Assembly: GCA_964658305.1 (NCBI GenBank)
Contig: OZ210884.1
Coordinates: forward strand, 3,100,001-3,164,000
Length of the DNA: 64,000 nt
Reading direction: 5' to 3'
From: Leptogorgia sarmentosa
Lineage: Eukaryota
Below the pieces are notes generated by a model. The model saw only the letters and a program-made list of their open reading frames with translations. It did no database searches and had not been told where the DNA came from. The position numbers were made by a program, and so were the translations under genes. This document shows, piece after piece, positions 18,925 through 64,000 of the stretch; the stretch's first letter is position 1, and every line of letters begins with the position of its first letter.

Positions 18925-21270
18925 TACAAAAACATTTCTTTTTTAGAGTCTGGTTTGATTGTATTATGTAATATATTGAAAATATCTAAAGTTCGCAAAA
19001 AACTAAAGTAGCTAAAAAATTTTCAAATTTTAGTAGTGTCGACAACGATTGTGACAACAACCGAGCCAGGTAATTTTTCTTTTAGTATTTTGTTCTAAGA
19101 AGAAATTTTTGCTGCATTTGTTTGCTGACATTTAAATGCTTCATTATTAATGCAGACAATATATTGGTTAAACCAGCGATTCCTTTCATACTTCTTTGGA
19201 AGTAAAAAGGGGTCAATAATGATTGATTATAGTTGGAAAATGACACATCAGTCGCCCATTAAAACAAAAACAAGTCTTTTTTAGAGTCTGGTTTGATTTA
19301 ATTTGATAAAAATGTGAAATTATCAAAAGTTCGCAAAATTAAAGTATGAAATGTTCAATTTTAGTTTTGTCTACAACGCCAAGTTCATCGATTGTGATTA
19401 CAACCGAACCAGGTAATTTTTCTTTCAATATTTTGTTCTAAAAAGAATTTTTTCCTGCATTTTCTTGCCTTACATTTGAAATTTCAGTATTGGTGGAAAC
19501 AATATTTACGAAAACCAGGGATTCCTTTCATATTTCCATGGTAGTAAATAGGGGGTCTATAATGATGATTGTTGGAAAATGGCACATCAGTCGAAAATGA
19601 ATACAGGAACAAGTCTTTTTTAGAGTCTGTTTTGATTTGATTTATTATGTAATATAGTGAAATTATTTTAAGTTCGCAAAACTAAAGTATAAAATTTTAA
19701 ATTTTAGTAGTGTCGTCAACGCCAATTTCATCGATTGTGACAACAACAGAACCAGGTAATTTTTCTTTTAGTATTTTGTTTTGAAAATAAATTTTTCCAG
19801 CATTTTGTGGCATTACATTTTAAGTTTCATTATTGGTGGAGATAATATTTATGAAAACCAGCGATTCCTTTCATATTTCCATGATAGTAAATAGGGGTCT
19901 ATAATGATGATTGTTGGAAAATGGCACATCAGTCGAAAATGAATACAGGAACCAGTCTTTTTTAGAGTCTGGTTTGATTTGATTTATTATGTAATATAGT
20001 GAAATTATTTTAAGTTCGCAAAACTAAAGTATAAAATTTTAAATTTTAGTAGTGTCTACAACGCCAAGTTCATCGATTGTGATTACAACCGAATCAGGTA
20101 ATTTTTCTTTCAATATTTTGTTCTAAAAAGAATTTTTTCCTGCATTTTGTTGCCTTACAATTGAAGTTTCAGTATTGGTGGAAACAATATTTACGAAAAC
20201 CAGCGATTCCTTTCATATTTCCATGGTAGTAAATAGGGGGTCTATAATGATGATTGTTGGAAAATGGCACATCAGTCGAAAATGAATACAGGAACAAGTC
20301 TTTTTTAGAGTCTGTTTTGATTTGATTTATTATGTAATATAGTGAAATTATTTTAAGTTCGCACAACTAAAGTATAAAATTTTAAATTTTAGTAGTGTCG
20401 TCAACGCCAATTTCATCGATTGTGACGACAACCGAACGAGGTAATTGTTCTTTTAGTATTTTGTTCTAAAAATAAATTTTTTCTGCATTTAATTGCCTTA
20501 CATTTGAAGTTTCATTAATGGTGGAGACAATATTCAGGAAAAGCAGCGATTCCTTTCATATTTCCATGGTAGTAAATGGGGGTCTATAATGATGATCGTT
20601 CTGAAATGGCACATCAGTCGAAAATGAATACAAAAACAAGTCTTTTTTAGAGTCTGGTTTGATTTTATCATGTAATATAGTGAAATTTTCTAAAGTTCGC
20701 CAAAACTATCGTATAAAATTTTCAATTTTAGTTGTATCGACAACGCCAAGTTCATCAATTGTGACAACAACCGAACCAGGTAATTTTTCTTTTTGTATTT
20801 TGTTCTAAAAAGAAATTTTTGCTGCATTTTGTTGCATGGCTGCGTTAAAATTCTTCATTATTGGTGGAGACAATATTTAGGAAAACCAGCGATTCCTTTC
20901 ATATATGCTTGGGAGTAAATAGGGGTCTATAATGATGAGTGTTGGAAAATGGCACATCAGTTGAAAATGAATACAAAAACAAGTCTTTTTTAGAGTCTGG
21001 TTTGATTGTATTATGTAACATAGTGAAATTATCTAAAGTTCGCAAAACTAAAGCGGCTAAAAAATTTTCAATTTCAGTAGTGTCGACAACGCCATGTTCA
21101 TCGATTGTGACAACAACCGAGTCAGGTAATTTTTCTTTTAGCATTTTGTTCTAAAAAGAAATTTTCCCTGCATTTTGTTGCCTTATATTTGAATGTTTCA
21201 TTTTTTGTCGAGACAAAGTTTTATAAACTAGCTATTCCTTTCATGTCTCGTTCGAAGTAAAAATGGGACA
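18925..21270 (+). repeat. Block 1 of the ~345-bp intron+microexon array, 7 units
   Basis: Exons at 19034-19069 (36 nt), 19365-19412, 19708-19755, 20050-20097, 20393-20440, 20732-20779, 21078-21125. All AG..GT, phase 1-1, no stops. Confidence 0.92.
19365..19412 (+). CDS. Representative 48-nt PTS microexon of gene B (VLSTTPSSSIVITTEP)
   Basis: caattttAG|TTTTGTCTACAACGCCAAGTTCATCGATTGTGATTACAACCGAACCAG|GTAATT. Confidence 0.8.
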
Positions 21271-21481
21271 TTCAATTTTGTCGTAAATTAATTAAACCTG
21301 GTACAAATAATTTATAAGTAAAGTGCCTGTCTGTAGCCGAGAAAGAGACATGTAGATTTTAAAAGTAATAATCCTACAGCAAGTTTTGAGTAATAATAAA
21401 CACACAAACTTGCCCTAATTTTAAAGCGATGTAGCTACACAATATTGTGTTTTTTAAAACTTTAATTTTTCCTTATCACAG

Positions 21482-21754
21482 ATAATGCTACATGTGAAGC
21501 AACAGGTGATCCACATTACACAACATTCGATGGAAGACGTTTCGAGTTCATGGGAAAATGTGAATATGTTCTGGCTAAAGACTGTGTGAACAACTCATTT
21601 GAAATCAGACATGTTAATGAACCTTGTGGAAATGGACAACCTTCCTGCACGAAATCACTCACTGTGATTTTCCCATCAATTGAAAAGATCAAACTTCTTC
21701 GAGGAAGTGTAGTTTATAATAACATGCCGATCTCATTACCAGCAACATATGGTG
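21482..21754 (+). CDS. Gene B, vWD domain exon 1, copy 1: [35 protein letters not shown]...LPATYG
   Basis: Acceptor ccttatcacAG, donor GTAAGT. 273 nt, phase 1-1. C-x3-GDPHY-x-TFDG von Willebrand D signature. Confidence 0.95.
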
Positions 21755-21894
21755 GTAAGTTAAATAAATAAACAGCAGGTAAGTTGCGCGACGCTACGAT
21801 ATATTATATTTCATATAAAAAAAGGAGTGCTCAATGGAAAAAAACCGACGTAAAGCGCATGGAAGGATATACAGTCGGGTATTTTTCTTTATAA

Positions 21895-22262
21895 ATAGCC
21901 ATATAAAAACACGGGCGTTGTTTGAGTGCTCATTAGAAAACCCGTGTTTCTAAAACACGATAGAAAGGCGAGAATTTCCCAGCGGGTTGCGTCGATTGCG
22001 CGGGAAATTACAAAACAAAATGAATCTTTGAATGAATGTAAATAAAATCAATAAATTAATTTTTTAATTTTTTTTAAAAGCATGATTGAAATTGAAAACA
22101 ATTTTTCCGTGTCTTTATTGAGTTATAGGAATACAAAGGTATAGGAAGTTTCGGAGAAACTCGAAATTGTGTGGATTCCTACGGAATTTCTCGTTTCTCC
22201 AAAATTTCCAAGCCTGTTTTTATAACTCTATAGAAAGACGAAAATTGTTTTTTCTTTTTTAA
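21895..22262. mobile_element. Intronic non-autonomous hairpin element (second copy about 30918-31285)
   Basis: Imperfect inverted arms aaacaatttttccgtgtctttattgagttata / tataactctatagaaagacgaaaattgttt and ggagaaactcgaaatt / aatttctcgtttctcc. Boundaries approximate. Confidence 0.45.
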
Positions 22263-22719
22263 ATATCAAGACATTGATAGTTATTTTTCATACGTTGATG
22301 TATTGGTGCATATGAAAAGAATTTCAATCATAATTCTAATCCAAAAATCTTGTTTATAACGTTAATTTTTTTGGCAGGGAAAATTTGAGATTGACGATGA
22401 ATTACATTCCAAAATATATTTCTATTTATTGTGCGTTTGTATAGCTACCTGTGTTTTTAGGACCAATCTCTTTTTTATTTTCACTCGTTTGTACATACAT
22501 TGAGTGCAAGTTCAGTAAAATGTACTTGATGCGTAATTTTTGTGCCTTTTCCAATAAATTAGTGATTGCATTTATAACGAAATACTGTAGTGCTAGACGT
22601 GATAGTACATTGAAGAACAGCGTCACATGCAAAGTAACACTGCTTGTATATGTATAGTTAAATACAGCGAAACTCGTTATTAGAGAATAAAGATTTTAAA
22701 AGTCCCTCTTCTTTATTAG

Positions 22720-23226
22720 TTGTAACTATAGAGCTCCACGGCGGAGTAACATGGGTAAAAGGTGACGGTATTACAGTGGAGTGGAATAATGTGTATAACG
22801 TGAAAGTGACGGTGCTTGGTCGTTATCTGAACAGAACATGTGGTTTGTGTGGGACATTTAATCGAAACCCGAGTGATGACTTCTTAAGACGGAATGGTGT
22901 AAACTCAGGCAATGCAGTGGAATTTGGAAATTCTTGGAAAATTGATCCTGACTGTGAGAATGCAACAGAGTTGGAACACCCATGTAACACTCATCCGGAA
23001 AGAAATGCATCAGCTGTAGCTAACTGTTCTGCATTAAGAACTTCACTTTTTGAAAACTGTACTATTTCTCCAGGATGCTATATCGCTGATTGTGAATATG
23101 ATATGTGTGGGTGTGGTGGTGATCGTACAGTTTGTTTCTGTCAAGCAATACAGGCTTATGTCCGTGACTGCTCCTCAACTGGAGTAACCATCGACTGGCT
23201 GAGTGATCCTCGTTTCGAACAATGCG
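22720..23226 (+). CDS. Gene B, vWD C-terminal half plus C8 domain exon, copy 1
   Basis: Acceptor ctttattAG, donor GTATGT. 507 nt, phase 1-1. TCGLCGTFN..DDF..FGNSWK (vWD), then Cys-rich CEYDMC..CFCQAIQAYVRDC..IDW (C8). Confidence 0.95.
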
Positions 23227-23693: not shown

Positions 23694-23715
23694 TGTATTT
23701 ATTTTGGTTATATAG

Positions 23716-23832
23716 GTACTCCATGTGCTAGCATTCCATGCTTAAACGATGGTTCTTGCACAAATAATGGTTCGTTTTCATTCTCCTGCTCATGTCTTGC
23801 TGGGTTCTCAGGTGCTCGTTGTGAAAACGAAG
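23716..23832 (+). CDS. Gene B, EGF exon, copy 1: GTPCASIPCLNDGSCTNNGSFSFSCSCLAGFSGARCENE
   Basis: Acceptor ggttatatAG, donor GTATAT. 117 nt, phase 1-1, six-Cys EGF pattern. Confidence 0.92.
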
Positions 23833-24268: not shown

Positions 24269-24289
24269 TTTATTTAATAATCCTCACCC

Positions 24290-25747: not shown

Positions 25748-28700
25748 GTTTAAATTCTTCATTATTGGTGGAGACAATATTTATGAAAATCAGCGATTCC
25801 TTTCATATTTCCATGATAGTAAATAGGGGTCTATAATGACGATTTTTGGAAAATAGCACATCAGTCGAAAAAGAATAAAAAAAACAAGTCTTTTTTAAAA
25901 TCTGGAATAATTTTATTATGTAATATAGTGAAATTATCTAAAGTTCGCCAAATTAAAGTAGCTCAAAAATTTTCAATTTTAGTAGTGACGACAACGCCAA
26001 GTTCATCGATTGTGACAACAACCACACCAGGTAATCTTATTTTGTTCTAAAAAGAAATTTTCCTGCATTTAATTGCCTTACATTTGAAGTTTCATTTCTG
26101 GTGGAGACAATATTTAGGAAAACCAGCGATTCCTTTCATATTTGCTTGGGAGTAAATAGGGGTCTATAACGATGAGTGTTGGAAAATGGCACATCAGTTG
26201 AAAATGAATACAAAAACAAGTCTTTTTTAGAGTCGGTTTTGATTTTATAATGTAATATAGTGAAATTATCTAAAATTCGCATAGCTAAAGTTGCTAAAAA
26301 TTTTTCAATTTTAGTTGTGCCGACAACGCCAAATTCATCGATGGAGACAACAACCGAACCAGGTAATTTTTCTTTAAGTATTTTGTTCTAAAAGGAATTT
26401 TTTCCTCCATTTTGCTGGATTGCGTTCAAATTCTTCATTATTGGAGGGTACAATATTTAAGAAAAACCAGCGGTTCCTTTCATTTTTGCTTGGGAGTATA
26501 AATAAGGCTCTATAATGACGATTGTTGGAAAATGGCACATCAGTTGAAAATGAAGACAAAAACAAGTCTTTTTTAGAGTCTTGTTTGATTTTATTATGTA
26601 ATATAGCGAAATTATCTAAAGTTCGCACAACTAAAGTAGCTAAAAATTTTTCAATTTTAGTTATGCCGACAACGCCAAATATATCGATAGTGACAACAAC
26701 CGAACCAGGTAATTTTTCTTTTAGTATTTTGCTCTAAAAGGAATTTTTTCCTCCATTTTGCTCGCTTGCGTTCAAATTCTTCATTATTGGAGGAGACAAT
26801 ATTTATGAAAAACCACCATTTTTGCTTGGGAGTATAAATAAGGGTCTATAATGACGATTGTTAGAAAATGGCACGTCAGTCGAAAATGAAGCAAAAACAA
26901 GTCTTTTTTAGTGTCTGGTTTCATCTTATTATGTAATATAGTGAAATTGTCTGAATTTCGCACAACTAAAGTAGCTAAAAATTTTTCGACAACGCCAAAT
27001 TCATCGATAGTGACAACAACAGAACCAGGTAATTTTTCTTTCAGTATTGATGAAAAACCAGCGGTTCCTATCATTTTTGCTTTGGAGTATAAATAAGGGT
27101 CTATAATGACGATTGTTGGAAAATGGCACATCAGTCGAAAATAAAGACAAAAACAAGTCTTTTTTTAGAGTCTGGTTTGATTTTATTATGTAATATAGCG
27201 AAATTATCTAAAATTCGCACAGCTAAAGTAGCTAAAAATTTTTCAATTTTAGTTGCGTCGACGACGCCATATTCATCGATAGTGACAATAACCGAACCAG
27301 GTAATTTTTCTTTTAGTATTTTGTTCTAAAAGGATTTTTTTCCTCGATTGTGCTAGCTTGCGTTCAAATTCTTCATTATTGGAGGAGACAATATTTATGA
27401 AAAACCAGCGGTTCCTTTCATTTTTGCTTGGGAGTATAAATAAGGGTCTATAATGACGATTGTTGGAAAATGGCACGTCAGTCGAAAATGAAGACAAAAA
27501 CAAGTCTTTTTTTAGAGTCTGGTTTGATCTTATTATGTAATATAGTGAAATTGTCTAAAAGTCGCACAACTAAAGAAGCTAAAAATTTTTCGACAACGCC
27601 AAATTCATCGATTGTAACAACAACCGAGCCAGGTAATTTTTTTTTTGGCATTTTGTTCTAAGAAGAATTTTTCCAGGATTCTGTTGGCTTATATTTAAAT
27701 GTTTGATTATTGGTGGAGACAATCTTTTTTAAACCACCGATTCTTTTCATACTTCTTTGGAAGTAAAAAGGGGTGAATAATGATTGATTAGTTGGAAAAT
27801 GGCACATCAGTCGCAAATGAAAACAAAAACAAGCCTTTTTTAGAGTCTGGTTTAATTTCATTTGAAAAAAATGTGAAATTATCTAAAGTTCGCAACACTA
27901 AAGAGTAAAATTGTCAATTTTAGTTGTGTCGACAACGCCAATTTCATTGATTGAGACAACAACCGGCCCAGGTAAATTTTCTTTTGTATTTCCTTCTAAA
28001 ACAAATTTGCTCCTGCATTTTGTTGGCTTGCATTTAATTGTTTCATTGTTTGTGGAGATAATATTAATATTATTAAACCAGGGATCGATCCTTTTATTAT
28101 TTCTGTTGAAGTAAAAAGGGGATCAATAATGATTGCTTGAACGTTGGAAAATAGCACATCTGTCGCGCATTAAAATGCGTCATTATTGGAGAAGACAATA
28201 TTTGATAAACCAGCGATTCCCTTTATATTTCTTTGGGAGTAAACATGGCCGTGTCTATAATGATTGATCCTTGGAAAATGGCACATCAGTATCACATTAA
28301 TAGCAAAACGTGTCTTTTTTAGAATGTGCGTTGCATTTATTATGTAATATACTGAAATTATCTAACGTTCGCAACACTGAAGTATAATATCCTCAATTTT
28401 AGTAGTGTCGACAACGCCAATTTCATCGATTGAGACAACAACCGGGCCAGGTAACTTTTCCTTTAGTGTTTCCTTCCAAAACGAATTTGATCTTGCATTT
28501 TTTGGCTTACATTTAAATGCTTCATTATTGATGCAGACAATATTTTTTAAACCCGCGATTCCTTTCATACTTCTTTGGAAGTAAAAAGGGGTCAATAATG
28601 ATGGAATAGTTGGAAATGGCACATCAGTCGCAAATTAAAACAAAAACAAGTCTTTTTAAGAGTCTGGATTGATTCCATTTGATAAAAATGTGAAATTATC

Positions 28701-30295
28701 TGTCGTTCGCAACACTAAAGAATAAAACTATCAATTTTAGTAGTGTCGACAACGCCAATTTCATCGATTGAGGCAACAACCGGGCCAGGTAACTTTTCTT
28801 TTAGTATTTCCCTCTAAAATGAATTTGATCCTGCATTTTTTTGGCTTACATTTAAATGCTTCATTATTGTTGCAGACAATATTTTTTAAACCAGCGATTA
28901 CTTTCATAATTCTTTGGAAGTAAAAAGGGGTCAATAATTATTGATTAGTTGGAAAATGGCACATCAGTCGCACATTAAAACAAGAACAAATCTTTTTTAG
29001 AGCCTGGTTTGATTTCATTTGATAAAAATGTGAAATTATCTAAGGTTCGCAACACTAAAGAATTAATCTATCAATTTTAGTAGTGTCGACAACGCCAATT
29101 TCATCGATTGAGACAACAATCGGGCCAGGTAACTTTTCTTTTAGTATTTCCTACTAAAACGAATTTGATCCTGCATTTTTTTGGCCTACATTTAAATGCT
29201 TCGTTATTGATGCAGACAATATTTTTTAAACCAGCTATTCCTTTCATGCTTCTTTGCAAGTAAAAAGGGGTCAATAATGATTGATTAGTTGGAAATGGCA
29301 CATCAGTTGCAAATTAAAACAAAAACAAGTCTTTTTTACAGTCTGGTTTGTTTTCATTTGATAAAAATGTGAAATTATCTGTGGTTCGCAACACTAAAGA
29401 ATAAAACTATCATTTTTAGTAGTGTCGGCAACGCCAATTTCATCGATTGAGACAACAACTGGGCCAGGTAACTTTTCTTTTAGTATTTCCTTCTAAAACG
29501 AATTTGATCCTGCATTTCTTTGGCCTACATTTAAATTCTTCATTATTGATGCAGACAATATTTTTTAAACCAGCTATTCCTTTCATGCTTCTTTGCAAGT
29601 AAAAAGGGGTCAATAATGATTGATTAGTTGGAAAATGACACATTTGTCGCCCATTAAAACAAAAACAAGTCTTTTTTAGAGTCTGGTTTGATTTCATTTG
29701 ATAAAAATGTGAAATTCGTAAAAAAGTTCGCAAAATTAAAGTATGAAATGTTCAATTTTAGTAGTGTCATCAACGCCAATTTCATCGATTGTGACAACAA
29801 CTGAACCAGGTAATTTTTCTTTTGGTATTTTGTTCTGAAAAGAAATTTTTCCTGCAATTTGTTGCCTAACATTTTAAGTTTCATTACTGGGGAGACAATA
29901 TTTATGAAACTAGCGATTCCTTTCATATTTCCATGGTAGTAAATAGGGGTCTATGATGTTGATTGTTGGAAAATGGCACATCAGTCGAAAATGAAAACAG
30001 GAACATGTCAATTTTAGAGTCTGGTTTGATTTTATTATGTAATATAGTGATATTATATGAAATTCGCACAACTAAAGTAGCTAAAAAACTTTCAATTGTA
30101 GTTGTGTCGACAACGCCATGTTCATCAATTGTGACAACAGCCGGGCAAGGTAATTTTTCTTTTAATATTTTGTTCTACGAAGAAATTTTTCCTGCGTTTT
30201 GTTTGTTTACATTTGAATGTTTCATTTTTTGTCGAAACATAGTTTTACAAACTAGCTATTCCTTTCATGTTTCGTTTGAAGTAAAAATGGGACAT
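25748..30295 (+). repeat. Block 2 of the intron+microexon array, 13 units (11 with intact splice sites)
   Basis: 48-nt exons start at 25983, 26315, 26661, 27253, 27924, 28403, 28741, 29081, 29420, 29762, 30102. Units near 26985 and 27590 lack the acceptor. Confidence 0.92.
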
Positions 30296-30507
30296 TCAAT
30301 TTTGTCGGAAATTAATTAAACCTGGTACAAATAATTTATAAGTAAAGTGCCTGTATATATAGCCGATAAACAGACATGTAGATTTTAAAAGTAATAATCC
30401 TACAGCATGTTTTGAATACTAATAAAAACACTAACTTGCCCTAATTTTAAAGCGATGTAGCTACACAACATTGTTTTTTTAAAAACTTTAATTTTCCCTT
30501 ATTACAG

Positions 30508-30780
30508 TCGAGGCTACATGTGAAGCAACAGGTGATCCACATTACACAACATTCGATGGAACACGTTTCGAGTTCATGGGAAAATGTGAATATGTTCTGG
30601 CTAAAGACTGTGTGAACAACTCATTTGAAATCAGACATGTTAATGAACCTTGTGGAAATGGACAACCTTCCTGCACGAAATCACTCACTGTGATTTTCCC
30701 ATCAATTGAAAAGATCAAACTTCTTCGAGGAAGTGTAGTTTATAATAACATGCCGATATCATTACCAGCAACATATGGTG
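30508..30780 (+). CDS. Gene B, vWD exon 1, copy 2: [27 protein letters not shown]...
   Basis: Acceptor cccttattacAG, donor GTAAGT. 273 nt, near-identical to 21482-21754. Confidence 0.95.
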
Positions 30781-31743: not shown

Positions 31744-32250
31744 TTGTAACTATAGAGCTCCACGGCGGAGTAACATGGGTAAAAGGTGACGGTATTACAG
31801 TGGAGTGGAATAATGTGTATAACGTGAAAGTGACGGTGCTTGGTCGTTATCTGAACAGAACATGTGGTTTGTGTGGGACATTTAATCGAAACCCGAGTGA
31901 TGACTTCTTAAGACGGAATGGTGTAAACTCAGGCAATGCAGTGGAATTTGGAAATTCTTGGAAAATTGATCCTGACTGTGAGAATGCAACAGAGTTGGAA
32001 CACCCATGTAACACTCATCCGGAAAGAAATGCATCAGCTGTAGCTAACTGTTCTGCATTAAGAACTTCACTTTTTGAAAACTGTACTATTTCTCCAGGAT
32101 GCTATATCGCTGATTGTGAATATGATATGTGTGGGTGTGGTGGTGATCGTACAGTTTGTTTCTGTCAAGCAATACAGGCTTATGTCCGTGACTGCTCCTC
32201 AACTGGAGTAACCATCGACTGGCTGAGTGATCCTCGTTTCGAACAATGCG
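31744..32250 (+). CDS. Gene B, vWD C-half plus C8 exon, copy 2
   Basis: 507 nt, same translation as copy 1. Confidence 0.95.
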
Positions 32251-32739: not shown

Positions 32740-32856
32740 GTACTCCATGTGCTAGCATTCCATGCTTAAACGATGGTTCTTGCACAAATAATGGTTCGTT
32801 TTCATTCTCCTGCTCATGTCTTGCTGGGTTCTCAGGTGCTCGTTGTGAAAACGAAG
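32740..32856 (+). CDS. Gene B, EGF exon, copy 2
   Basis: 117 nt, same translation as copy 1. Confidence 0.92.
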
Positions 32857-47470: not shown

Positions 47471-47484
47471 CCCAGTAAGCACAC

Positions 47485-47810
47485 CGACGTCGATTCAACG
47501 TCGAATCGACGTTACTACCTGACGTCGAAACGACGTCGAAAAACAGGTCGAAAACGCAAATCGAATCGACGTTAGACTTTCGACGTCGATTCAACGTTGA
47601 CGTTTCGACGTCGATTCAACGTTGACGTTTCGACGTCGATTCAACGTTGAACTTTCGACGTCGATTCAACGTTGACTTTTCGACGTCGATACGACGTCGA
47701 AAAACAGGTCGAAAACGCAAATCGAATCGACGTTAGACTTTCGACGTCGATTCAACGTTGACGTTTCGACGTCGATTCAACGTTGACTTTTCGACGTCGA
47801 TAGTACGTTG
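47485..47810. repeat. Left subterminal repeats, ~25-bp unit cgacgtcgattcaacgttgacgttt
   Basis: Directly visible, with palindromic TCGACGTCGA cores. Confidence 0.9.
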
Positions 47811-49736
47811 GAAAATGCGACGAAGTTGCAAATTGATCAAAATTAATAAATTTTCTGTTGCAATTTGTTTTGATGATATATTTATTTTCGAACTCAGTCA
47901 GTATCTTACATATTACATATTATATACTTTAATACACTTGATTATTTACAAACACCGAACTGTAATTAAGCGATTCCAATTTGGACCTATATATATTATA
48001 CTATCTGCACTAATTTATTATCAACTAGCTATACGTTAATTAATTTTTTACCACGAAATTATTATAAAGAACATCTTACAAGTTTGGTAAAATTGCCAAG
48101 ATTGGTTGTGAAATGTAGAATCCTGGCAAATTTTGTATTCTTCTGCAGTTACAGTTATCAATCTTGTGTATGGACTATATGTTTATTATGAAAAATGTCC
48201 CATAATGATCGATTATAGATAGACTTTCTACTTCCCCCTTTCCTGTCCGGAGCATACTTTAAAATCTGTCCCATTGCTTTATAAACATCACTTTCGGTGC
48301 TCTAATAAGTGAAAAATATCAATTAATTAAGCCTGTCTCTCTAATGTAGCTACAGTATATCCCTCTACATAACTAAACAGTTATCTTTTTGATGGCTTTG
48401 TTAATCGATTTATTGAAAGCAAGTAATTCTCAATTTTCATCTTCAACACAATATGTGTGCCAGCCAGTATGGAATTAGCATAGCAATGGCATTGTAGTTC
48501 AGGTTTATAGTCTCGATCTACTGTAGCCAGTTTAAGTCAACAAATTTTGAAAGGATATCAAAAAAATCAGTTTGCTTAATTGCTTTTGCCAAACCTGATG
48601 AGTTATGTCCCTACTATAACTAGTGATTATTTGCTTAACAAACCTGATGAGTTATGCATGACCCTACTAACTAGTGATTATTTGCTTAAAGCCCCCCCCC
48701 CTTAAAAAATTCGCTTCCACTGCCTCTTTGTATGCTCAGTCTGTATAATAGGTTGTCTGAAATTCTATTTTAAAAAATTGAAAAACCAGCCTAAATCAAT
48801 TACAAAAAATTTCCTACGCAGAAATACTCGGTTTTTAATATATCACTGATGAAACCAGGCTGACAAAGTCTAACTAAACTACTAGATTGATTTGGATTGT
48901 AAAATGTAACTCTACTAATCAAATACACAAACGTTACACATCATTGTCGAGGCAAGAGCTATGAATCGACTTTTCTCTTGCATAGTAAGAATATATGATA
49001 CAGAATTAACCTTTATGTAGAAGCGATTAATTTTGTGAATTATAGTGCTGATCACTAGTGTTCCAGTTCAGTTTATTGAACCAGCACTTTTGAAGCACGA
49101 GCACTTCGAACTTCGAAGCGCATCGCAGTGCACACTGATTGAACGAAATATAAAGCGATATATCACAAAATAAAAATAAACAAGTTGCATATTATACTAA
49201 CCTTTTCTGTAGTCTTGAATTAAATCAACTAAATGAACGGGAAATTATCCCCAAAAGACAAGAACAACGACAAGCAATGAAATCCTTTGTGTGAAATTTT
49301 GAATACACGCGGTTTGTGAGCGTCTATGACAACACTTCCCATGATTCTCAGTCTCGTGTCATCGCCGATTGTATACCGAGCCGAACGGCCCGAACCGAGT
49401 TTGGGCCGAATGCGCGACACCTTATTCGTATTACTATTTCGCCAAAGTCCAAACACGCGTGCAATTTTTCATTAATACTTCTCGAACCGAGTAATTTCCT
49501 ATACATATTATACCTCAAATTCAAATTGTCCAATGAAAAAACAGCATTTGTACCACGTGATAGTGTGATTTTTTACGGTATTTCCCTCGATTTGACCTTG
49601 GGAGGGTAATTCCACTTTATATTCCCCTCTACTTGGACTTTGACCTCCTGCCTGGCCTGTTTTGCGGGCAATTTCCTTGTCAACATGGCCGACAAAACAC
49701 AGAATGTGTCGAAGATGAAAAATTTTCGGTATAATA

Positions 49737-49880
49737 TATCTGTTATCGACCTTTCACTCGGGGTATTCCACAAAAAAATACCCCTCGGAATGAAATATTC
49801 CTCGGGCTGCGCCCTCGGAATATTTCATTCCTCAGGGTATTTTTTTGTGGAATACCCCTCGTTCCAGGTCGATAACTGAT
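49737..49880. repeat. ~145-bp imperfect palindrome inside the TIR element
   Basis: gggtattccacaaaaaaatacccctcggaatgaaatattcctcgggc-tgc-gccctcggaatatttcattcctcagggtatttttttgtggaatacccc. Confidence 0.85.
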
Positions 49881-50139
49881 AAAAATACCCTACCTAAAAA
49901 TTCAAAATTATTTAAAAACTATCAATGTCTTAATAAATACGATCAATCACATGTTGAAAAAGGTTGAAATAGCAAACGTAGTCGTCGGTACGAACTTTGC
50001 CCAAAAGATCAGTTTCTAAAGTGTTGATATGCAATTGTATGTTGGGGTATAAATTAAAATATGCTGATCCATATTCAACGTCAGCTATAGGGCCCAAAAC
50101 GTAAATATATATATTTTTAATTAGTTGTTTTAATGTTCA

Positions 50140-50790
50140 GGTCAGGTTAACGACGTCGATTGAACGTCGAAACGAGGTCAATTTTTCGACGTCGATATTA
50201 AGTCAGCATAACGACGTCGATTGAACGTCGAAACGAGGTCAATTTGTCGACGTCGATATTAAGTCAGGATAACGACGTCAATTGAACGTCGAAACGAGGA
50301 CAATTTTTCGACGTCGATATTAAGTCAGGATAACGACTTCGATTGGACGTCGAAACGAGGTCAATTTGTCGACGTCGATATTAAGTCAGGATAACGACGT
50401 CAATTGAACGTCGAAACGAGGACAATTTTTCGACGACGATATTAAGTCAGGATAACGACTTCGATTGGACGTCGAAACGAGGTCAATTTGTCGACGTCGA
50501 TATTCAGTCAGGATAACGACGTCGATTGAACGTCGAAACGAGGTCAATTTTTCGACGTCGATATTAAGTCAGGATAACGACGTCGATTTAACGTCGAAAC
50601 GAGGTCAATTTGTCGACGTCGATATGAGGTCAGGTTAACGACGTCGATTCAACGTCGAAACGAGGTCAGTTTGTCGACGTCGATATGAGGTCAGATTAAC
50701 GACGTCGATTCAACGTCGAAACGAGGTCAATTTGTCGACGTCGATATGAGGTCAGGTTATCGACGTCGATTCAACGTCGATATATAGTCG
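50140..50790. repeat. Right subterminal array, 61-bp unit, about 10 copies
   Basis: aacgacgtcgattgaacgtcgaaacgaggtcaatttttcgacgtcgatattaagtcaggat with period 61. Confidence 0.92.
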
Positions 50791-50854
50791 ATCGACGTCC
50801 CGACCAAATATCAACCTAAATTCGACGTCGAAACGACGTCGTGTGTTTGCTGGG

Positions 50855-52220
50855 GATGTTTTAGTATTGGTGGAGACAATATTTATGAAAACCAGCGATT
50901 CCTTTCATATTTCCATGGTAGTAGATAGGAGTCTATAATGATGATTGTTGGAAAATGGCACCTCAGTCAAAAATGAATACAAAAACAAATCTTTTTTAAA
51001 GTCTGATTTGATTTTATTATGTAGTAAAGTGAAATTATCTAAAGTTCGCAAAGCTAAAGTAGCTAAAAAATTTTCAAATTTAGTAGTGTCCACAACGCCA
51101 ACTTCATTGATTGTGGCAACAACCGTACCAGGGAATTTTTCTTTTAGTATTTTGTTCTAAGAAGAAATTTTTCCTTCATTTTGTTCCCTTACATTTTAAG
51201 TTTCATTATTGTTGGATTCAAAATTTATGAAAACCAGCAATTCCCTTAATATTTCCATGGTAGTAAATACGGGTCTATATTGATGGTTGTTGGAAAATGC
51301 CGCATCAGTCGAAAATGAATGCAAAAACAAATATTTTTTAAAGTCTGGTTTGATTTTATTATGTGATATAGTGAAACAATCTAAAGCTCGCAAAACTAAA
51401 GAATAAAAGTTAAAATTTTAGTAGTGTCGTCAACGCCAATTCCATCGATTGTGACAACAACCGAACCATGTAATTTTCCTTTTAGTATTTTGTTGAAAAA
51501 AGAAATTTTTCGTGCATTTTGTTGCCTTATACATTTGAAGTTTCAGTATTGGTGGAGACAATATTTATGAAAACCAGCGATTCCTTTCATATTTCCATGG
51601 TAGTAGATAGGGGTCTATAATGATGATTGTTGGAAATTGCCACTTCAGTCGAAAATGAATACAAAAACAAATATATTTTAAAGTCTGGTTTGATTTTATT
51701 ATGTGATATAGTGAAACAACTAAAGTTGGCAAAACTAAAGAATAAAATTTTAAATTTTAGCAGTGTTGTCAACGCCAATTCCATCGATTGTGACGACACC
51801 CGAACCAGGTAAATTTTCTTTTAGTTTTAATTTTTGTTCTAAAAGGAAATATTTCCAGCATTTTGTTACCTCACATTTGAAGTTTCATTATTGGTGGAGA
51901 CAATATTTAGGAAAACCAGCGGATTCCTTTCATATTTCCATAGTAGTAAATGGGAGTCTATAATGATTTATCGTTGGAAAATGGCACATCAGTCGCATAT
52001 TAACAGAAAAACAAGTCTTTTTTAAAGTCTGGTTTGATTTTATTGTTTAATATAATGAAATTATCTAAAGTTCGCAAAACTAAAGTATAAAATTTTCAAT
52101 TCTAATAGTGCCGACAACACGAATTTCAACGACTGTCGCCACAACCCAGCCAGGTACAGTTTTCTAAGTATTTTTTTCCAAAAATCTTTTTTGGGCGCTT
52201 TCAAGTTTCAGTATTTATAA
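50855..52220 (+). repeat. Block 3b of the intron+microexon array, 4 units
   Basis: Exons 51084-51131 (donor GG, dead), 51422-51469, 51761-51808, and divergent terminal 45-nt exon 52109-52153 (VPTTRISTTVATTQP). Confidence 0.9.
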
Positions 52221-54446: not shown

Positions 54447-57400
54447 ACAAGTCTTTTTTAGAGTCTGGTTTGATTTTATTTATTATGTAATATAGTGGAA
54501 TTATCTAAAGTTTGCAAAACTAAAGTAGCTAAAAAATTTTCAATTTTAGTAGTGTTCACAACGCCAAGTTCATCGATGGTGACAACAACCGAACCAGGTA
54601 ATTTTTCTTTTAGTGTTTTGTTCTAAAAAGAAATTGTTCAGGCATTTTGTTGCCTTACATTTTAAGTTTTATTATTGGTGAAGACAATATTTATGAAAAC
54701 CAGCGATTCCTTTCATATTTCCACGGTAGTAAATGGGGCTCTATAAGGATGATTGTTGAAAATGGCGCATCAGTCGAAAATGAATACAAAAACAAATATT
54801 TTTTAAAGTCTGGTTTGATATTACTATGTAATATAGTGAAACAATCTAAAGTTCCCAAGACTAAAGAATAAAGTTTGAAATTTTAGTAGTGTCGTCAACG
54901 CCAACTCCATCGAATGTGACAACAACCGAACGAGGTAATTTTTCTTTTCGTATTTTGTTCTGAAAAGAAATTTTTGCTGCATTTTGTTGCCTTACATTTG
55001 AAGTTTCATTATTGGTGGAGACAATATTTATGAAAACCAGCGATTCCTTTCATATTTCCATGGTTGTAAATAGGGGTCCATAATGATGATTGTTGGATAA
55101 TGGCACATCAGCCGAAAATGAATACAAAAACAAGTCTTTTTTAGAGACTGGTTTGATTTTGTCATGTAATATTATGGTAATCGTGAAATTATCTAAAGTT
55201 CGCAAAACTATCGTATAAAATTTTCAATTTTAATTTTAGTTGTGTCGACAACGCCAAGTTCATCGATTGTGACAACAACCGAACCAGGTAAATTTTTTTA
55301 GTATTTTTTTCTAAAAGGAAATTTTTTCTTCATTTTTTTGGCTTGCGTTTAAATTCTTCATTATTGGCGGAGACAATAATTATGAAAACCAGCGATTCCT
55401 TTCATTTTTCCATGGTAATAAATAGGGGTCTATAATGATGATTGTTGGAAAATGGCACATCAGTCGAAAATGAATAATACAAAAACAAATATTTTTTAAA
55501 GTCTGGTTTGATTTTATTATGTACAATTATAGTCAAATTATCTAAAGTTCGCAAAACTAAATTATCTAAAAAAATTTCAATTTTAGTTGTGTCGTCAACG
55601 CCAATTTCATCGATTGTGACAACAACCGATCCAGGTAATTTTCCTTTTAGTATTTTGTTGTAAAAAGAAATTTTTCATGCATTTTGTTGCCGTATACATT
55701 TGATGTTTCAGTATTGGTGGAGACAATATTTATGAAAACCAGCGATTCCTTTCATATTTCCATGGTAGTAGATAGGAGTCTATAATGATGATTGTTGGAA
55801 AATGCCACATCAGTCGAAAATGAATACAAAAACAAATATTTTTTAAAGTCTGGTTTGATTTTATTATGTATTATAGTGAAATTATCTAAAGTTCGCAAAA
55901 CTAAAGTAACTAAAAAATTTTCAATTTTACTATAGTGTCCACAAAGCCAAGTTCATCGATTGTGGCGACAACCGAACCAGGTAATTTTTCTATTAGTATT
56001 TTGTTCTAAAAAGAAATTGTTCAGGCATTTTGTTGCCTTACATTTTAAGTTTTATTATTGGTGAAGACAATATTTATGAAAACCAGCGACTCCTTTCATA
56101 TTTCCATGGTAGTAAATGGGGGTCTATAATGATGATTGTTGGAAAATGGCACATCAGTCGAAAATGAATACCAAAACAAATCTTTTTTAAAGTCTGGTTT
56201 GATTTTACTATGTAATATAGTGAAACAATCTAAAGTTCGCAAAACTAAATAATAAAATATAAAATTTTAGTATTGTCGTCAACGCCAATTGCATCGATTG
56301 TGACAACAACCGAACCAGGTAATTTTTCTTTTAGTATTTTGTTCTAAAAAGAAATTTTTCCTGCATTTTGATGCCGTACATTCGAAGTTTAATTAATGGT
56401 GGAGACATTATTTATGAAAACCAGCGATTCCTTTCATATTTCCATGGTAGTAAATAGGGCTCTATAATGATGATTGTTGGAAAATGGCACATCAGTCGAA
56501 AATGAATAATACAAAAACAAATATTTTTTAAAGTCTGGTTTCATTTTATTATGTATTATAGTGAAAGTATCTAAAGTCCGCAAAACTAAAGTAGCTAAAA
56601 AATTTTCAATTTTACTAGTGTCCACAAAGCCAATTCCATCGATTGTGGCGACAACCGAACCAGGTGATTTTTCTTTTAGTATTTTGTTCTAAAAAGAATT
56701 GTTCAGGCATTTTGTTGCCTTACATTTTAAGTTTTATTATTGGTGAAGACAATATTTATGAAAACAAGCGATTCCTTTCATATTTCCATGGTAGTATATG
56801 GGGGTCTATAATGATGATTGTTAAAAATGGCGCATCAGTCGCAAATGAATACAAACACAAATCTTTTTTAAAGTCTGGTTTGATTTTACTATGTAATATA
56901 GTGAAACAATCTAAAATTCGCAAAACTAATGAATAAAATATAAAATTTTAGTAGTGTCGTCAACGCCAATTCCATCGATTGTGACAACAACCGAACAAGG
57001 TAATTTTTCTTTTAGTATTTTGTTCTAAAAAGAAATTTTTCTGCATTTTGTGGCCTTACATTTTAAGTTTCATTATTGGTGGAGACAATATTTATGAAAA
57101 CCAGCGATTCCTTTCATATTTCCATGGTATTAAATGGGGATCTATAATGATGATTGTTGAAAATGGCGCATCAGTCGAAAATGAATACAAAAACAAATCT
57201 TTTTTAAAGTCTGGTTTGATTTTACTAGCTATGTAATATAGTGAAACAATCTAAAGTTCACAAAACTAAAGAATAAAATATAAAATTTTAGTTGTGTCGT
57301 CAACGCCAATTCCATCGATTGTGACAACAACCGAACAAGGTAATTTTTCTTTTAGTATTTTGTTCTAAAAAGAAATTTTTCCTGCATTTTGATGCCGTTC

Positions 57401-60400
57401 ATTCGAAGTTTAATTATTTGTGGAGACAATATTTATGAAAACCAGCGATTCCTTTCATATTTCCATGCTAGTAAATAGGGGTCCATAATGATGATTGTTG
57501 GATAATGGCACATCAGCCGAAAATGAATACAAAAACAAGTCTTTTTTAGAGACTGGTTTGATTTTGTCATGTAATATTCTGGTAATCGTGAAATTATCTA
57601 AAGTTCGCAAAACTATCGTATAAAATTTTCAATTTTAATTTTAGTTGTGTCGACAACGCCAAGTTCATCGATTGTGACAACAACCGAACCAGGTAAATTT
57701 TTTTAGTATTTTTTCTAAAAGGAAATTTTTTCTGCATTTTTTTGGCTTGCGTTTAAAATCTTCATTATTGGCGGAGACAATATTTATGAAAACCAGCGAT
57801 TCCTTTCATTTTTCCATGGTAGTAAATAGGGGTCTATAATGATGATTGTTGGAAAATGGCACATCAGTCGAAAATGAATAATATAAAAACAAATATTTTT
57901 TAAAGTCTGGTTTGATTTTATTATGTACAATTATAGTCAAATTATCTAAAGTTCGCAAAACTAAATTATCAAAAAAATTCAATTTTAGTTGTGTCGTCAA
58001 CGCCAATTTCATCGATTGTGACAACAACCGATCCAGGTAATTTTCCTTTTAGTATTTTGTTGTAAAAAGAAATTTTTCATGCATTTTGTCGCCGTATACA
58101 TTTGATGTTTCAGTATTGGTGGAGACAATATTTATGAAAACCAGCGATTCCTTTCATATTTCCATGGTTATAGATAGGAGTCTATAATGATGATTGTTGG
58201 AAAATGCCACATCAGTCGAAAATGAATACAAAAACAAATATTTTTTAAAGTCTGGTTTGATTTTATTATGTATTATAGTGAAATTATCTAAAGTTCGCAA
58301 AACTAAAGTAACTAAAAAATTTTCAATTTTACTATAGTGTCCACAAAGCCAAGTTCATCGATTGTGGCGACAACCGAACCAGGTAATTTTTCTATTAGTA
58401 TTTTGTTCTAAAAAGAAATTGTTCAGGCATTTTGTTGCCTTACATTTTAAGTTTTATTATTGGTGAAGACAATATTTATGAAAACCAGCGATTCCTTTCA
58501 TATTTCCATGGTAGTAGATAGAAGTCTATAATGATGATTGTTGGAAAATGGCGCATCAGTCGAAAATGAATACAAAAACAAATACTTTTTAAAGTCTGGT
58601 TTGATTTTATTATGTAATATAGTGAAACAATCTAAAGTTCCCAAACTAAAGAATAAAATTTGAAATTTTAGTAGTGTCGTCAACGCAAATTCCATCGAAT
58701 GTGACAACAACCGAACGAGGTAATTTTCTTTTAGTATTTTGTCTTAAAAAGAAATTTTTCCTGCATTTTGTTGCCTTACATTTGAAGTTTCATTATTGGT
58801 GGAGACAATATTAATGAAAACCAGCGATTCCTTTCATATTTCCATGGTAGTAAATAGGGGTCCATAATGATGCATGATTTTTGGATAATGGCACATCAGT
58901 CGAAAATGAATACAAAAACAAATCTTTTTTAAAGTCTGGTTTGAGTTTACTATGTAATATAGTGAAACAATCTAAAATTCGCAAAACTAAGGAATAAAAT
59001 ATAAAATTTTAGTAGTGTCGTCAACGCCAATTCCATCGATTGTGACAACAACCGAACAAGGTAATTTTTCTTTTAGTATTTTGTTCTAAAAAGAAATTTT
59101 TCCTGCATTTTGATGCCGTTCATTCGAAGTTTAATTATTTGTGGAGACAATATTTATGAAAACCAGCGATTCCTTTCATATTTCCATGGTAGTAAATAGA
59201 GGTCCATAATGATGATTGCTGGATAATGGCACATCAGCCGAAAATGAATACAAAAACAAGTCTTTTTTAGAGACTGGTTTGATTTTGTCATGTAATATTC
59301 TGGTAATCGTGAAATTATCTAAAGTTCGCAAAACTATCGTATAAAATTTTCAATTTTAATTTTAGTTGTGTCGACAACGCCAAGTTCATCGATTGTGACA
59401 ACAACCGAACCAGGTAAATTTTTTTAGTATTTTTTCTAAAAGGAAATTTTTTCTGCATTTTTTTGGCTTGCGTTTAAAATCTTCATTATTGGCGGAGACA
59501 ATATTTATGAAAACCAGCGATTCCTTTCATTTTTCCATGGTAGTAAATAGGGGTCTATAATGATGATTGTTGGAAAATGGCACATCAGTCGAAAATGAAT
59601 AATATAAAAACAAATATTTTTTAAAGTCTGGTTTGATTTTATTATGTACAATTATAGTCAAATTATCTAAAGTTCGCAAAACTAAATTATCTAAAAAAAA
59701 TTCAATTTTAGTTGTGTCGTCAACGCCAATTTCATCGATTGTGACAACAACCGATCCAGGTAATTTTCCTTTTAGTATTTTGTTGTAAAAAGAAATTTTT
59801 CATGCATTTTGTTGCCGTATACATTTGATGTTTCAGTATTGGTGGAGACAATATTTATGAAAACCAGCGATTCCTTTCATATTTCCATGGTTATAGATAG
59901 GAGTCTATAATGATGATTGTTGGAAAATGCCACATCAGTCGAAAATGAATACAAAAACAAATATTTTTTAAAGTCTGGTTTGATTTTATTATGTATTATA
60001 GTGAAATTATCTAAAGTTCGCAAAACTAAAGTAACTAAAAAATTTTCAATTTTACTATAGTGTCCACAAAGCCAAGTTCATCGATTGTGGCGACAACCGA
60101 ACCAGGTAATTTTTCTATTAGTATTTTGTTCTAAAAAGAAATTGTTCAGGCATTTTGTTGCCTTACATTTTAAGTTTTATTATTGGTGAAGACAATATTT
60201 ATGAAAACCAGCGATTCCTTTCATATTTCCATGGTAGTTGATAGGAGTCTATAATGATGATTGTTGGAAAATGCCACATCAGTCGAAAATGAATACAAAA
60301 ACAAATATTTTTTAAAGTCTGGTTTGATTTTATTATGTAATATAGTGAAACAAGTAAAGTTCGCAAAACTAAAGAATAAAATTTAAAATTTTAGTACGGT

Positions 60401-60850
60401 CGTCAACGCCAATTCCATCGATTGTGACAACAACCGAACCAGGTAATTTTTCTTTTGGTATTTTGTTCTAAAAAGAAATTTTTCGTACATTTTGTTGCCT
60501 TACATTTGAAGTCTCAGTATTGGTGGAGACAATATTTACGAAAACCAGCGATTCCTTTCGTATTTCCATGGTAATAGGGGTCTATAATGATGATTGTTGG
60601 AAAATGGCACATCAGTCGCACATTAACAGAAAACAAGTCTTTTTTAAAGTCTGGTTTGATTTTATTGTGTAATATAGTGAAATTATGAAAAGTTCGGAAA
60701 ACTGAAGTATAAAATTTTCAATTCTAATACTGTAGTGCCGACAACACGAATTTCAACGACTGTCGCCACAACCCAGCCAGGTACAGTTTTCTAAGTATTT
60801 TTTTCCAAAAATCTATTTTGGGCGCTTTCAAGTTTCAGTATTTATAAAGC
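54447..60850 (+). repeat. Block 4 of the intron+microexon array, 19 units
   Basis: First exon 54550-54597, terminal divergent exon 60736-60780. All counted units keep AG and GT. Confidence 0.93.
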
Positions 60851-61376: not shown

Positions 61377-61492
61377 ATGCTGTAGTGTCGTTCCGGCTTC
61401 AATTTGTAATAATAAATATTGTTTACATACTGGCGTATAATAATTCAACAAGTCAGGAATACATTGTTTTGACGCAACGAATTACAGTGGAG
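61377..61492 (+). CDS. Gene B, SEA exon 1, copy 2: DAVVSFRLQFVIINIVYILAYNNSTSQEYIVLTQRITVE
   Basis: Duplicate of 52746-52861 with the same splice sites. Confidence 0.85.
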
Positions 61493-61692: not shown

Positions 61693-61760
61693 TGCACGAG
61701 ACTATTGCAAAATTCATCACTGCGTTTATATGGTCCATTATGCAGGATTTTAGGATTATC
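61693..61760 (+). CDS. Gene B, SEA exon 2, copy 2: CTRLLQNSSLRLYGPLCRILGL(S)
   Basis: Duplicate of 53062-53129 with the same splice sites, open frame. Confidence 0.82.
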
Positions 61761-62727
61761 GTAAGTTCGTTATTCCGTGGTTATCATACCTTATTACAGA
61801 ACCGACGAGGCATGCAGAGTTACATAAGCACGGAGTTCGATTATTACTCCAAATCCGGCAAAGCTTGTTTCTACAGAGATCATTGAATTAGTCAAGTCGT
61901 GTTTAACTATGTTGTTATGCCTTATTGTTGCACGGCAATGTTTCGCCAATTCTATTGACAGTACACAACTATACCGACGGTTACTTATTAATGACAAGGT
62001 TTAGATTTTAACAAAAGCAAACGACGGTGTTTGACAACAGGCACCCTATTTGTGAACCAATCATACTGTTTATTGACTACAACGGCTCCATTCACTTCCG
62101 CTTCGTGTCCGCTTAGTCAAAAACATCGTTTGCCTAAGCTCACTAATCTCGCTTCAACTATCACTACCTTTGAGAGACCTATGCGGCATGTGATTGGTTA
62201 GGGTTAATTGACTATCGCATCGAATGCTTCATTTTCCCTTTATGTAGTAGAGGTGCTGGAAGTGAATGTCATAATTATGTAAACCTCCTTACAATCAGTA
62301 GGCTATTACTTGTTCCTCTTTACAAACACTTTTTATTACGTGAGATTTCACATATTGACTTTGTGCAAGGTTCAATTTTGATTTCATCTGAGAGGTTATG
62401 CTGCATGGCACATTGATCGTGTGCATGATATCTATTTGAAACGCTGTATTTTTGAAGCTTCTTCTGCGCTAATGTGGTTATGATATAGTTTTCAAAAAAA
62501 TCTGTAGAGAGTTATCTAAACACCTATTACAATATTACTGTACATCGAAGCCTAAATATAATAATCAATTCCATGAACACGTTTAAAACGGACATTAAAA
62601 CATTATAAAATTTTGGCCATGATAAATATGTCCTATTAAGAGTGTCTATATATGTTACAGACAACGTGCATATTTCACAGACGTCAAAAAATGTTGAAAT
62701 CATGCCTCCGGTTCTATCTATTTTTAG

Positions 62728-62903
62728 ACCGGGATCTGTCATTGTAGACTCCGTCGTAACATTGAACGATACGATTGCATTGAATAATTCAATGTTAGAG
62801 AGTGAACTTGGCGGAAGTTTGAACGCAACAAGTGATGGGTTCTTTCTGGGTGACGATTTTAAACTCAGTAACAGTACAGATGCATCGCCTTTCTCGATTT
62901 CAG
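62728..62903 (+). CDS. Gene B, SEA exon 3, copy 2 (PGSVIVDSVV...)
   Basis: Duplicate of 54095-54270. Confidence 0.9.
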
Positions 62904-63079
62904 GTATTTCCGTTTCTTCTAGCAAGAATCTAGCGACATCTTTATGCAGCTCTTGCCACATCACATAAATATTGATAGAAAGAATGAAAGCAAAATTTCC
63001 GGAAATCCTTAAATTAGCTGAATAATATTGTTAAAGTTATCATCATGATATTGCACTATTATTTGGTCCTTTGTTTGCC

Positions 63080-64000
63080 ACAAGTCTTTTTTAGAGTCTG
63101 GTTTGATTTTATTTATTATGTAATATAGTGGAATTATCTAAAGTTTGCAAAACTAAAGTAGCTAAAAAATTTTCAATTTTAGTAGTGTTCACAACGCCAA
63201 GTTCATCGATGGTGACAACAACCGAACCAGGTAATTTTTCTTTTAGTGTTTTGTTCTAAAAAGAAATTGTTCAGGCATTTTGTTGCAAAATTATACTTTC
63301 TAATGTTGTATACATTTGAAGTTTCATTATTGGTGGAGACAATATTTATGAAAACCAGCGATTCCTTTCATATTTCCATGGTTGTAAATAGGGGTCCATA
63401 ATGATGATTGTTGGATAATGGCACATCAGCCGAAAATGAATACAAAAACAAGTCTTTTTTAGAGACTGGTTTGATTTTGTCATGTAATATTATGGTAATC
63501 GTGAAATTATCTAAAGTTCGCAAAACTATCGTATAAAATTTTCAATTTTAATTTTAGTTGTGTCGACAACGCCAAGTTCATCGATTGTGACAACAACCGA
63601 ACCAGGTAAATTTTTTTAGTATTTTTTTCTAAAAGGAAATTTTTTCTTCATTTTTTTGGCTTGCGTTTAAATTCTTCATTATTGGCGGAGATATTTTTTA
63701 AAGTCTGGTTTGATTTTATTATGTACAATTATAGTCAAATTATCTAAAGTTCGCAAAACTAAATTATCTAAAAAAATTTCAATTTTAGTTGTGTCGTCAA
63801 CGCCAATTTCATCGATTGTGACAACAACCGATCCAGGTAATTTTCCTTTTAGTATTTTGTTGTAAAAAGAAATTTTTCATGCATTTTGTTGCCGTATACA
63901 TTTGATGTTTCAGTATTGGTGGAGACAATATTTATGAAAACCAGCGATTCCTTTCATATTTCCATGGTAGTAGATAGGAGTCTATAATGATGATTGTTGG
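63080..64000 (+). repeat. Block 5 of the intron+microexon array (runs off the window)
   Basis: Exons 63183-63230, 63558-63605, 63789-63836. Confidence 0.9.

Follow-up and report, generated by a model that had tools for sequence, protein, structure and literature searches.

In the genome of the cnidarian Leptogorgia sarmentosa, a 64,000-nucleotide (nt) stretch (assembly GCA_964658305.1, contig OZ210884.1, forward-strand positions 3,100,001 to 3,164,000, here called the window and numbered from its first letter) was found to carry a long array of tandem units, each with a short core between splice-like signals. We consider it probable, at about 0.85, that this array is a series of 45-48-nt exons, each copied along with its own intron, which encode the threonine- and serine-rich stalk of one large mucin. 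The cores are regarded as exons because selection preserves their reading frame and because core-to-core joints occur in contigs that resemble RNA. Most of the intact exons would be included by default, and regulated skipping is possible. Dense O-glycosylation is expected of the proline-, threonine- and serine-rich (PTS) repeats of mucins, and on this general knowledge the stalk is predicted to be O-glycosylated. Judging from an upstream paralog and from octocoral relatives, the gene would end in a transmembrane segment beyond the window, and the mucin is likely membrane-tethered.

The tandem units contain short open cores between splice sites

A search of the window with nhmmer, with one acceptor-core-donor segment as the query, gave 85 matches, all on the plus strand, of which 83 were located in the array and two in an upstream gene (3,819-4,102). 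The 83 units form blocks of 7, 13, 41, 19 and 3 with a period of ~345 base pairs (bp), and Tandem Repeats Finder reported arrays of period 340-351 between 18,884 and 60,811. The acceptor AG and the donor GT were kept in 74 of the 83 units, with cores of 48 nt (n = 59), 45 nt (n = 14) or 36 nt (n = 1). A preliminary description, made from the letters of this DNA, had stated that splice-intact copies have these three lengths, lack stops and are of phase 1-1, and this holds in 74/74; its counts of 83 units, 74 intact exons and about 1,150 amino acids (aa) were also right, the last being 1,166 aa in our model. The exact number of units is uncertain because a block of 16 units is present as a near-identical duplicate (99.95% identity).

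The nine broken units were six of 47 nt (units 25, 35, 39, 44, 51 and 55), all with GG or AG instead of GT at the donor position, one in-frame unit with a GG donor (unit 58) and two that lack the acceptor (units 11 and 13), and GT was retained by 76/83 units overall. Spacers between neighbouring units measured 183-431 nt, a multiple of three in 16 of 77, and had a GC content of 28% vs 48% in the cores. The splice signals had been described earlier as a polypyrimidine tract with AG and a CAG/GTAA donor (the slash marks the exon boundary). The AG and GT are there, as counted above, but the tract is T/A-rich and not strongly polypyrimidine (5-10 of 12 bases), and the donor is not always CAG/GTAA, with GTAC in units 61 and 80, GTGA in unit 68 and CAT/GT in unit 59. 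CTAA/YTRAY motifs were present upstream in 53/74 units, a count without a chance control. No exact match to the core motif was found in metagenome contigs.

We also applied an exon test that required YAG, a pyrimidine-rich tract, a length divisible by three, GT followed by A or G, an open frame and at least 50% S+T+P. It was passed by 48 of 76 real monomers and by 0 of 1,900 dinucleotide shuffles, with a pyrimidine threshold that had been loosened from 8/12 to 7/12 after a real monomer failed the stricter version. When the PTS condition was removed, 59/76 real monomers and 335/1,900 shuffles passed.

Some units vary at their ends. In the 45-nt units (for example at 37670, 52109 and 55936) the first acceptor AG is lost or displaced, and the second AG gives an exon that is 3 nt shorter and in frame; both AGs, 3 nt apart, are present in 22 of the 59 48-nt exons. 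In the donor-dead units 35, 39, 44, 51 and 55 (for example 39749-39810), a G/GTATTT resembling the donor of the third SEA exon is located 15 nt downstream; if it were used, the frame would shift and the protein would stop before any membrane anchor.

Selection acts on the frame of the cores

Seventy distinct monomers were aligned to their majority sequence. The spacers showed 88 indel events in 216 columns, 66 of which were not multiples of three, and the 48 core columns showed two events, an in-frame 12-nt deletion in unit 1 and a 1-nt deletion common to six units with dead donors. A stricter comparison, restricted to columns away from homopolymer runs and with events no more than 2 nt apart merged, gave 16 events in 87 spacer columns vs 1 in 43 core columns (P=0.010; P=0.0016 for intact cores only), where the P values are rough, as events are not fully independent. 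The preliminary description had proposed this comparison, and its outcome is that spacers often carry frameshifts whereas splice-intact cores carry none. The lone core frameshift is confined to the six donor-dead units. Unit 58, the nearest relative of the 47-nt units, has a dead donor yet an intact frame, which suggests that in this lineage, as a single event, the donor was lost before the frame.

In terms of substitutions, mean column conservation was 0.91 in cores vs 0.88-0.91 in spacers, a similarity that joint homogenisation of exon and intron would produce. Selection acts on the frame, and the identity of the residues is unconstrained.

Core-to-core joints occur in RNA-like contigs

Four of 15 listed runs (X4, X5, X8 and X9) were aligned to positions 20,990-23,900 at 85% likeness. 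X4 was DNA-like, with 30/30 bins covered and one contig reading through introns. X8 behaves as RNA, because its record 17 (1,002 nt) carries the first vWD exon, the second vWD exon and the EGF exon back to back without introns, passing over a dead vWD fragment at 23,643. X5 and X9 resembled X8, with some intron cover also seen in X5.

Contigs of X5 and X8 leave the end of the only core within these positions and return to its start with a period of 48 or 45 nt, at depths of 18-94, and a loose end in X8 has a core tail ahead of a core start. In X9, which comes from a different study, record 23 (78 nt) runs from core to core, and its second half is the first 28 nt of unit 7, exact only there. 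One core-to-core joint was tabulated for all four runs and had a depth of 0 in the DNA-like X4, so that the comparison with X4 covers this one joint type. Six junction types were found among the joints listed, each matching neighbouring pairs of intact units: one type in X5 fits only pairs 15-16 to 18-19 in array 2, and the strongest RNA joint type fits pairs 65-66, 72-73 and 77-78 in array 4. None of the 31-mers across neighbour junctions (0/69) is contiguous in the DNA of the window. Record 17 of X8 also continues for 115 nt past the EGF exon where the depth of the intron bin is 0, which fits spliced cores by depth alone. Neither the ranking of exons nor any copy count drew on contig depths. 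The joints are of the kind that the preliminary description foresaw in transcripts and present each repeat as its own spliced exon, with the RNA status of the runs judged from the contigs.

A single open frame joins the repeats to signal, vWD, EGF and SEA exons

For the exons outside the repeats, we took the splice sites directly from the sequence and assigned domains with Pfam. The joined model has 87 exons: besides the signal exon and 74 cores, it includes the vWD-C8-EGF cassette in two copies and the three-exon SEA domain in two copies, and it gives 6,079 nt and 2,026 aa without a stop (Table 1). Every core and every cassette is in phase 1 at both ends, in agreement with the earlier claim that the phases of the cores match those of the flanking signal, vWD, EGF and SEA exons. 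The repeat part, a long PTS tandem-repeat domain of the kind that defines mucins, is 61% S/T/P (T 27%, S 21%, P 13%), and the 74 exons encode 37 distinct peptides; in the two remaining forward frames, the joined cores contain 80 and 7 stops. The gene extends past the end of the window, and its C-terminus is located beyond 64,000. The first exon has a hydrophobic stretch with a Kyte-Doolittle value of 2.44 over 11 aa, a measure that is not a signal-peptide predictor, in an exon outside the region compared with the RNA-like runs.

Table 1. Features of the mucin-like locus and its upstream paralog in the 64,000-nt window.
Feature	Position	Strand	Remarks
Paralog, 3' end	1-5857	+	SEA exons 1-70, 664-731, 1526-1701; calcium-binding-type EGF 2443-2577; hydrophobic exon from 5755
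Two 48-nt family exons in paralog	3819-3866, 4055-4102	+	Between EGF and transmembrane exons
First coding exon, predicted signal peptide	18128..18194	+	22 aa, ends in phase 1; AG/ATG start, G/GT end
Array 1, units 1-7	18884..21269	+	7 intact exons, 108 aa; 19034-19069 is 36 nt; last exon 21078-21125
vWD exon 1, copy a	21482..21754	+	Phase 1-1; Pfam VWD E=5.9e-20; joined to next exon in X8 record 17
vWD exon 2 and C8, copy a	22720..23226	+	Phase 1-1; Pfam VWD 1.6e-12, C8 3.6e-13; spliced in X8 record 17
EGF exon, copy a	23716..23832	+	Phase 1-1; Pfam EGF 2.3e-06; spliced in X8 record 17
Array 2, units 8-20	25748..30310	+	11 intact exons, 176 aa; acceptor lost in units 11 and 13
vWD exon 1, copy b	30508..30780	+	6 differences from copy a; copy-b letter found at one site in an X5 contig
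vWD exon 2 and C8, copy b	31744..32250	+	Identical to copy a
EGF exon, copy b	32740..32856	+	Identical to copy a
Array 3, units 21-61	34772..52184	+	34 intact exons, 535 aa; 5,545-bp near-identical duplication; 3.4-kb insertion
SEA copy a, three exons	52746-52861, 53062-53129, 54095-54270	+	Phases 1-0, 0-2, 2-1
Array 4, units 62-80	54447..60811	+	19 intact exons, 299 aa
SEA copy b, three exons	61377-61492, 61693-61760, 62728-62903	+	Exon sizes and phases as in copy a; 3, 11 and 3 differences
Array 5, units 81-83	63080..64000	+	3 intact exons; continues off the window

A SEA domain, as in mucins of the MUC1/MUC13 type, was recognised in parts: exon 1 of copy a matched Pfam SEA as a fragment below the cut-off (E=1.1e-4, 22.7 bits vs 26.4), and exon 3 matched three octocoral proteins whose own SEA domains score above it. 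Exon 3 of copy a begins with GSVVV, which we take to be the SEA motif. Between the two SEA copies, exon 2 (53062-53129 vs 61693-61760) differs at 11 of 68 nt, vs 3 of 116 and 3 of 176 in the adjoining exons, a local and unexplained divergence located directly ahead of the GSVVV site. Just ahead of each EGF exon (23643-23696 and 32667-32720) lies a dead copy of the acceptor and first ~54 nt of vWD exon 1, the former of which is the fragment passed over in X8 record 17.

Exons, introns and whole domain cassettes were duplicated together

Duplications in the locus are larger than the unit. A second copy of the vWD-C8-EGF cassette, introns included, lies at an offset of 9,024 bp (96.8% identity over 5.2 kb), one of the SEA cassette at 8,633 bp (93.7% over 3.2 kb) and one of the 16-unit block at 5,545 bp (2 mismatches in 3,696 bp). 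Both cassette duplications start and end inside repeat units. The 16-unit block may be a very recent duplication or an over-count in the assembly. Together with the column conservation, these higher-order duplications indicate that exon and intron have been duplicated and homogenised as one. We propose that unequal crossing-over between units would lead to gain or loss of repeats and would also copy entire domain cassettes of phase 1-1, as in the 9.0-kb vWD-EGF duplication and the 8.6-kb SEA duplication. Since all modules are symmetric, such gains and losses would leave the frame intact, and a unit whose splice site is lost would become plain intron.

Mobile-element sequences were also observed in introns and spacers. 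At 24315-25113 on the minus strand, and in a copy ~9,024 bp downstream, there is a broken PIF1-like helicase in two frames (Pfam E=5e-12 and 1e-10), presumably a Helitron-type remnant; it adjoins a 16-bp minisatellite in the intron after the EGF exon and was duplicated along with the cassette. A 3.4-kb insertion in the spacer of units 57/58 (47471-50856) has the inverted ends CCCAG..CTGGG, is flanked by what looks like a target duplication of 2 bp and contains repeats of 25 and 61 bp; it is likely a non-autonomous DNA transposon. In the vWD intron, X4 contigs reach a depth of up to ~100,000 at 21821-22270, pointing to an abundant interspersed repeat.

An upstream paralog and octocoral proteins share the domains

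The seven exons of the upstream paralog are open in one frame. Its SEA exons share the 68- and 176-nt sizes, and 26 of 88 aligned residues are identical (score 98 vs a shuffle maximum of 64). The two family exons in the paralog belong to a unit of 236 bp, whose likeness to the 345-bp unit is limited to the exon with ~60 nt upstream and ~27 nt downstream. An older remnant of the spacer was noticed in the paralog at 2757-2869.

The vWD exons have their best matches in Paramuricea (65% and 74%) and Dendronephthya, with identities ranging from 51 to 74%. An HMMER search with SEA exon 3 gave nine matches; P0030, P0035 and P0037 were set aside as repeat-driven. Exon 3 is 43-58% identical to octocoral proteins, which are SEA-EGF-transmembrane proteins that likewise match the tail of the paralog. 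A word-based protein search with the same exon returned 45 candidates, none significant, and an Atlas look-alike, with SEA at 0.84, was a lead only. The EGF of the paralog is 55% identical (24/44) to that of CAB4000659.1, and a hydrophobic segment ends both proteins. The closest sequences to this locus are the octocoral XP_028414303.1, CAB4000659.1 and CAB4012177.1 and the Paramuricea and Dendronephthya matches of the vWD exons, with SEA-EGF-transmembrane or vWD-C8-EGF architecture, which as annotated differ from it in lacking PTS repeats: no PTS-rich window was found in 11 selected matches, the maximum being 47% S+T+P in 32 aa. This absence may be real, or the microexons may have been missed by annotation.

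Alternative explanations

Several observations weigh against the interpretation as one large mucin gene. No run among the 15 is recorded as RNA, and X5, X8 and X9 were judged so from their spliced contigs. Of the joints listed for 20,990-23,900 in the four runs, none connected a repeat exon to a domain exon, what X8 record 17 adds past the EGF exon is judged by depth alone, and contigs cannot establish one single transcript. The ratio of non-synonymous to synonymous change in the cores (pN/pS) was 1.16 (Fisher P=0.43), from 14 synonymous changes seen out of 38 possible and 38 non-synonymous ones out of 83; the dN/dS comparison suggested in the preliminary description therefore revealed no purifying selection on residues and was rejected as support for coding. 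Avoidance of stops is weak, as the changes that could make a stop number only five (none seen), and the order of donor loss and frameshift rests on one event. The joined cores are also free of stops in one frame of the reverse strand, so that openness alone proves little, and there is no transmembrane segment within the window.

The same gene could also use its exons selectively, the length of the stalk within one animal being set by NAGNAG choice and by the skipping, whether regulated or stochastic, of symmetric exons, an idea that we find possible but lean against. The symmetry of all 74 intact exons would allow it, as would the second AG 3 nt downstream in 22 of the 59 48-nt exons, and the nine dead units must be skipped already; in the passages of the literature considered here, skipping was proposed for chicken Muc13 (PMC1552070) and splice length variants were reported for SmPoMuc (PMC2576457). 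All six joint types, however, fit neighbouring units and none requires a skip; short contigs of near-identical exons cannot separate neighbours from skips. A bolder proposal, which we regard as unlikely, is that a symmetric cassette of intron and microexon made the octocoral SEA/EGF/vWD membrane-protein family into mucins in this lineage and is the substrate of domain-duplicating crossovers, with regulated skipping fixing the length of the stalk in each cell. The cassette is present in two copies in one paralog, in at least 83 in its neighbour and in none of the annotated relatives (11 selected).

Instead of one frame of 2,000 aa, the locus might represent several tandem genes, a decaying pseudogene or a partial over-expansion of the assembly. 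The big near-identical duplications (3,696 bp with 2 mismatches), the mobile-element pieces in introns and the position of the C-terminus outside the window would be compatible with this, but it is improbable given 87 exons without a stop or phase clash and a single recognised signal exon. The letters of both vWD copies are present in the DNA-like X4, and each copy is seen in an RNA-like contig (copy b in one contig of X5, copy a in X8 record 17); an over-count of the 16-unit block would alter the length and not the design. That the units are merely an intronic satellite in a gene for a stalkless vWD/EGF/SEA protein, with the joints due to splicing noise or another locus, would accord with the annotated relatives, with a pN/pS near 1 and with the missing repeat-to-domain joint, but is very improbable, since indels that are not multiples of three are depleted in cores only, GT is kept in 76/83 units, joints occur in three runs of two studies, including variants specific to array 2 and unit 7, and the paralog retains only the exon and its flanks.

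Comparison with known mucins

The interpretation as one mucin gene was compared with known systems, as described in the portions of the cited papers considered here. Gel-forming mucins (MUC2/5/6/19) have three N-terminal VWD-C8-TIL units before the PTS region (PMC4948705), and this class was rejected, as the locus has two VWD-C8 units, each followed by EGF and split by PTS blocks. A MUC4-like protein, defined by the NIDO-AMOP-VWD module (PMC9080433, in whose main text, as considered here, the word 'exon' is absent), was also rejected, as only repeat units are located between the signal exon and vWD.

The preliminary description had implied that the design is new, but it is preceded by two systems. 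Lang, Hansson and Samuelsson (2006, PMC1552070) described one PTS repeat per exon in chicken Muc13, proposed control of length by splicing, and noted a multi-exon PTS region in a zebrafish homologue and a possibly ancestral design. Chicken Muc13 is like this locus in its near-identical one-per-exon repeats and its signal-PTS-SEA layout, a likeness of design for which orthology is not claimed, but it has at least 12 repeats of 20 aa vs at least 74 of 15-16 aa here, where, unlike in Muc13, several PTS blocks alternate with vWD-C8-EGF and SEA. In the SmPoMuc genes of Schistosoma mansoni (2008, PMC2576457), a 27-bp exon with flanking introns forms a ~1-kb tandem repeat that shows concerted evolution and varies in copy number, with up to 20 repeats per gene in a multigene family, exon repetition in transcripts and splice variants; spider silk genes and Coccidioides SOWgp are cited there as having the same design. 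The exon-plus-intron tandem repeats are shared with our locus without a claim of homology, whereas a single locus here carries 83 or more 345-bp units and has entire domain cassettes in duplicate.

Other systems share single features. The Xenopus tropicalis family of secreted SEA/PTS mucin-like proteins, as summarised in PMC4948705, alternates SEA and PTS as this locus does; the vWD-C8-EGF cassettes present here are unmentioned in that summary. Several exons make up the PTS region of chicken MUC2, which has one in-frame splice variant, and alternative splicing makes Xenopus FIM-C.1 polymorphic (PMC3549977, PMC7177656, PMC7853314).

Significance

What is new here is the lineage, the scale and the duplication of whole vWD-EGF and SEA cassettes between repeat units. 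No report of a cnidarian mucin with one repeat per exon was found in the open-access literature, supplements excluded. The locus extends this design to a cnidarian and bears on whether it is ancestral, as considered in PMC1552070, or arose repeatedly through repeat gain, as suggested by PMC9417175, so far as the portions of these papers considered here go. The 74 exons encode 37 distinct peptides, and therefore long reads could test whether mucin length is tuned by splicing. More than 1,100 codons can be concealed by repeat masking, as this locus warns. It also presents a coding satellite under selection for frame only, whose dead units would retire into intron.

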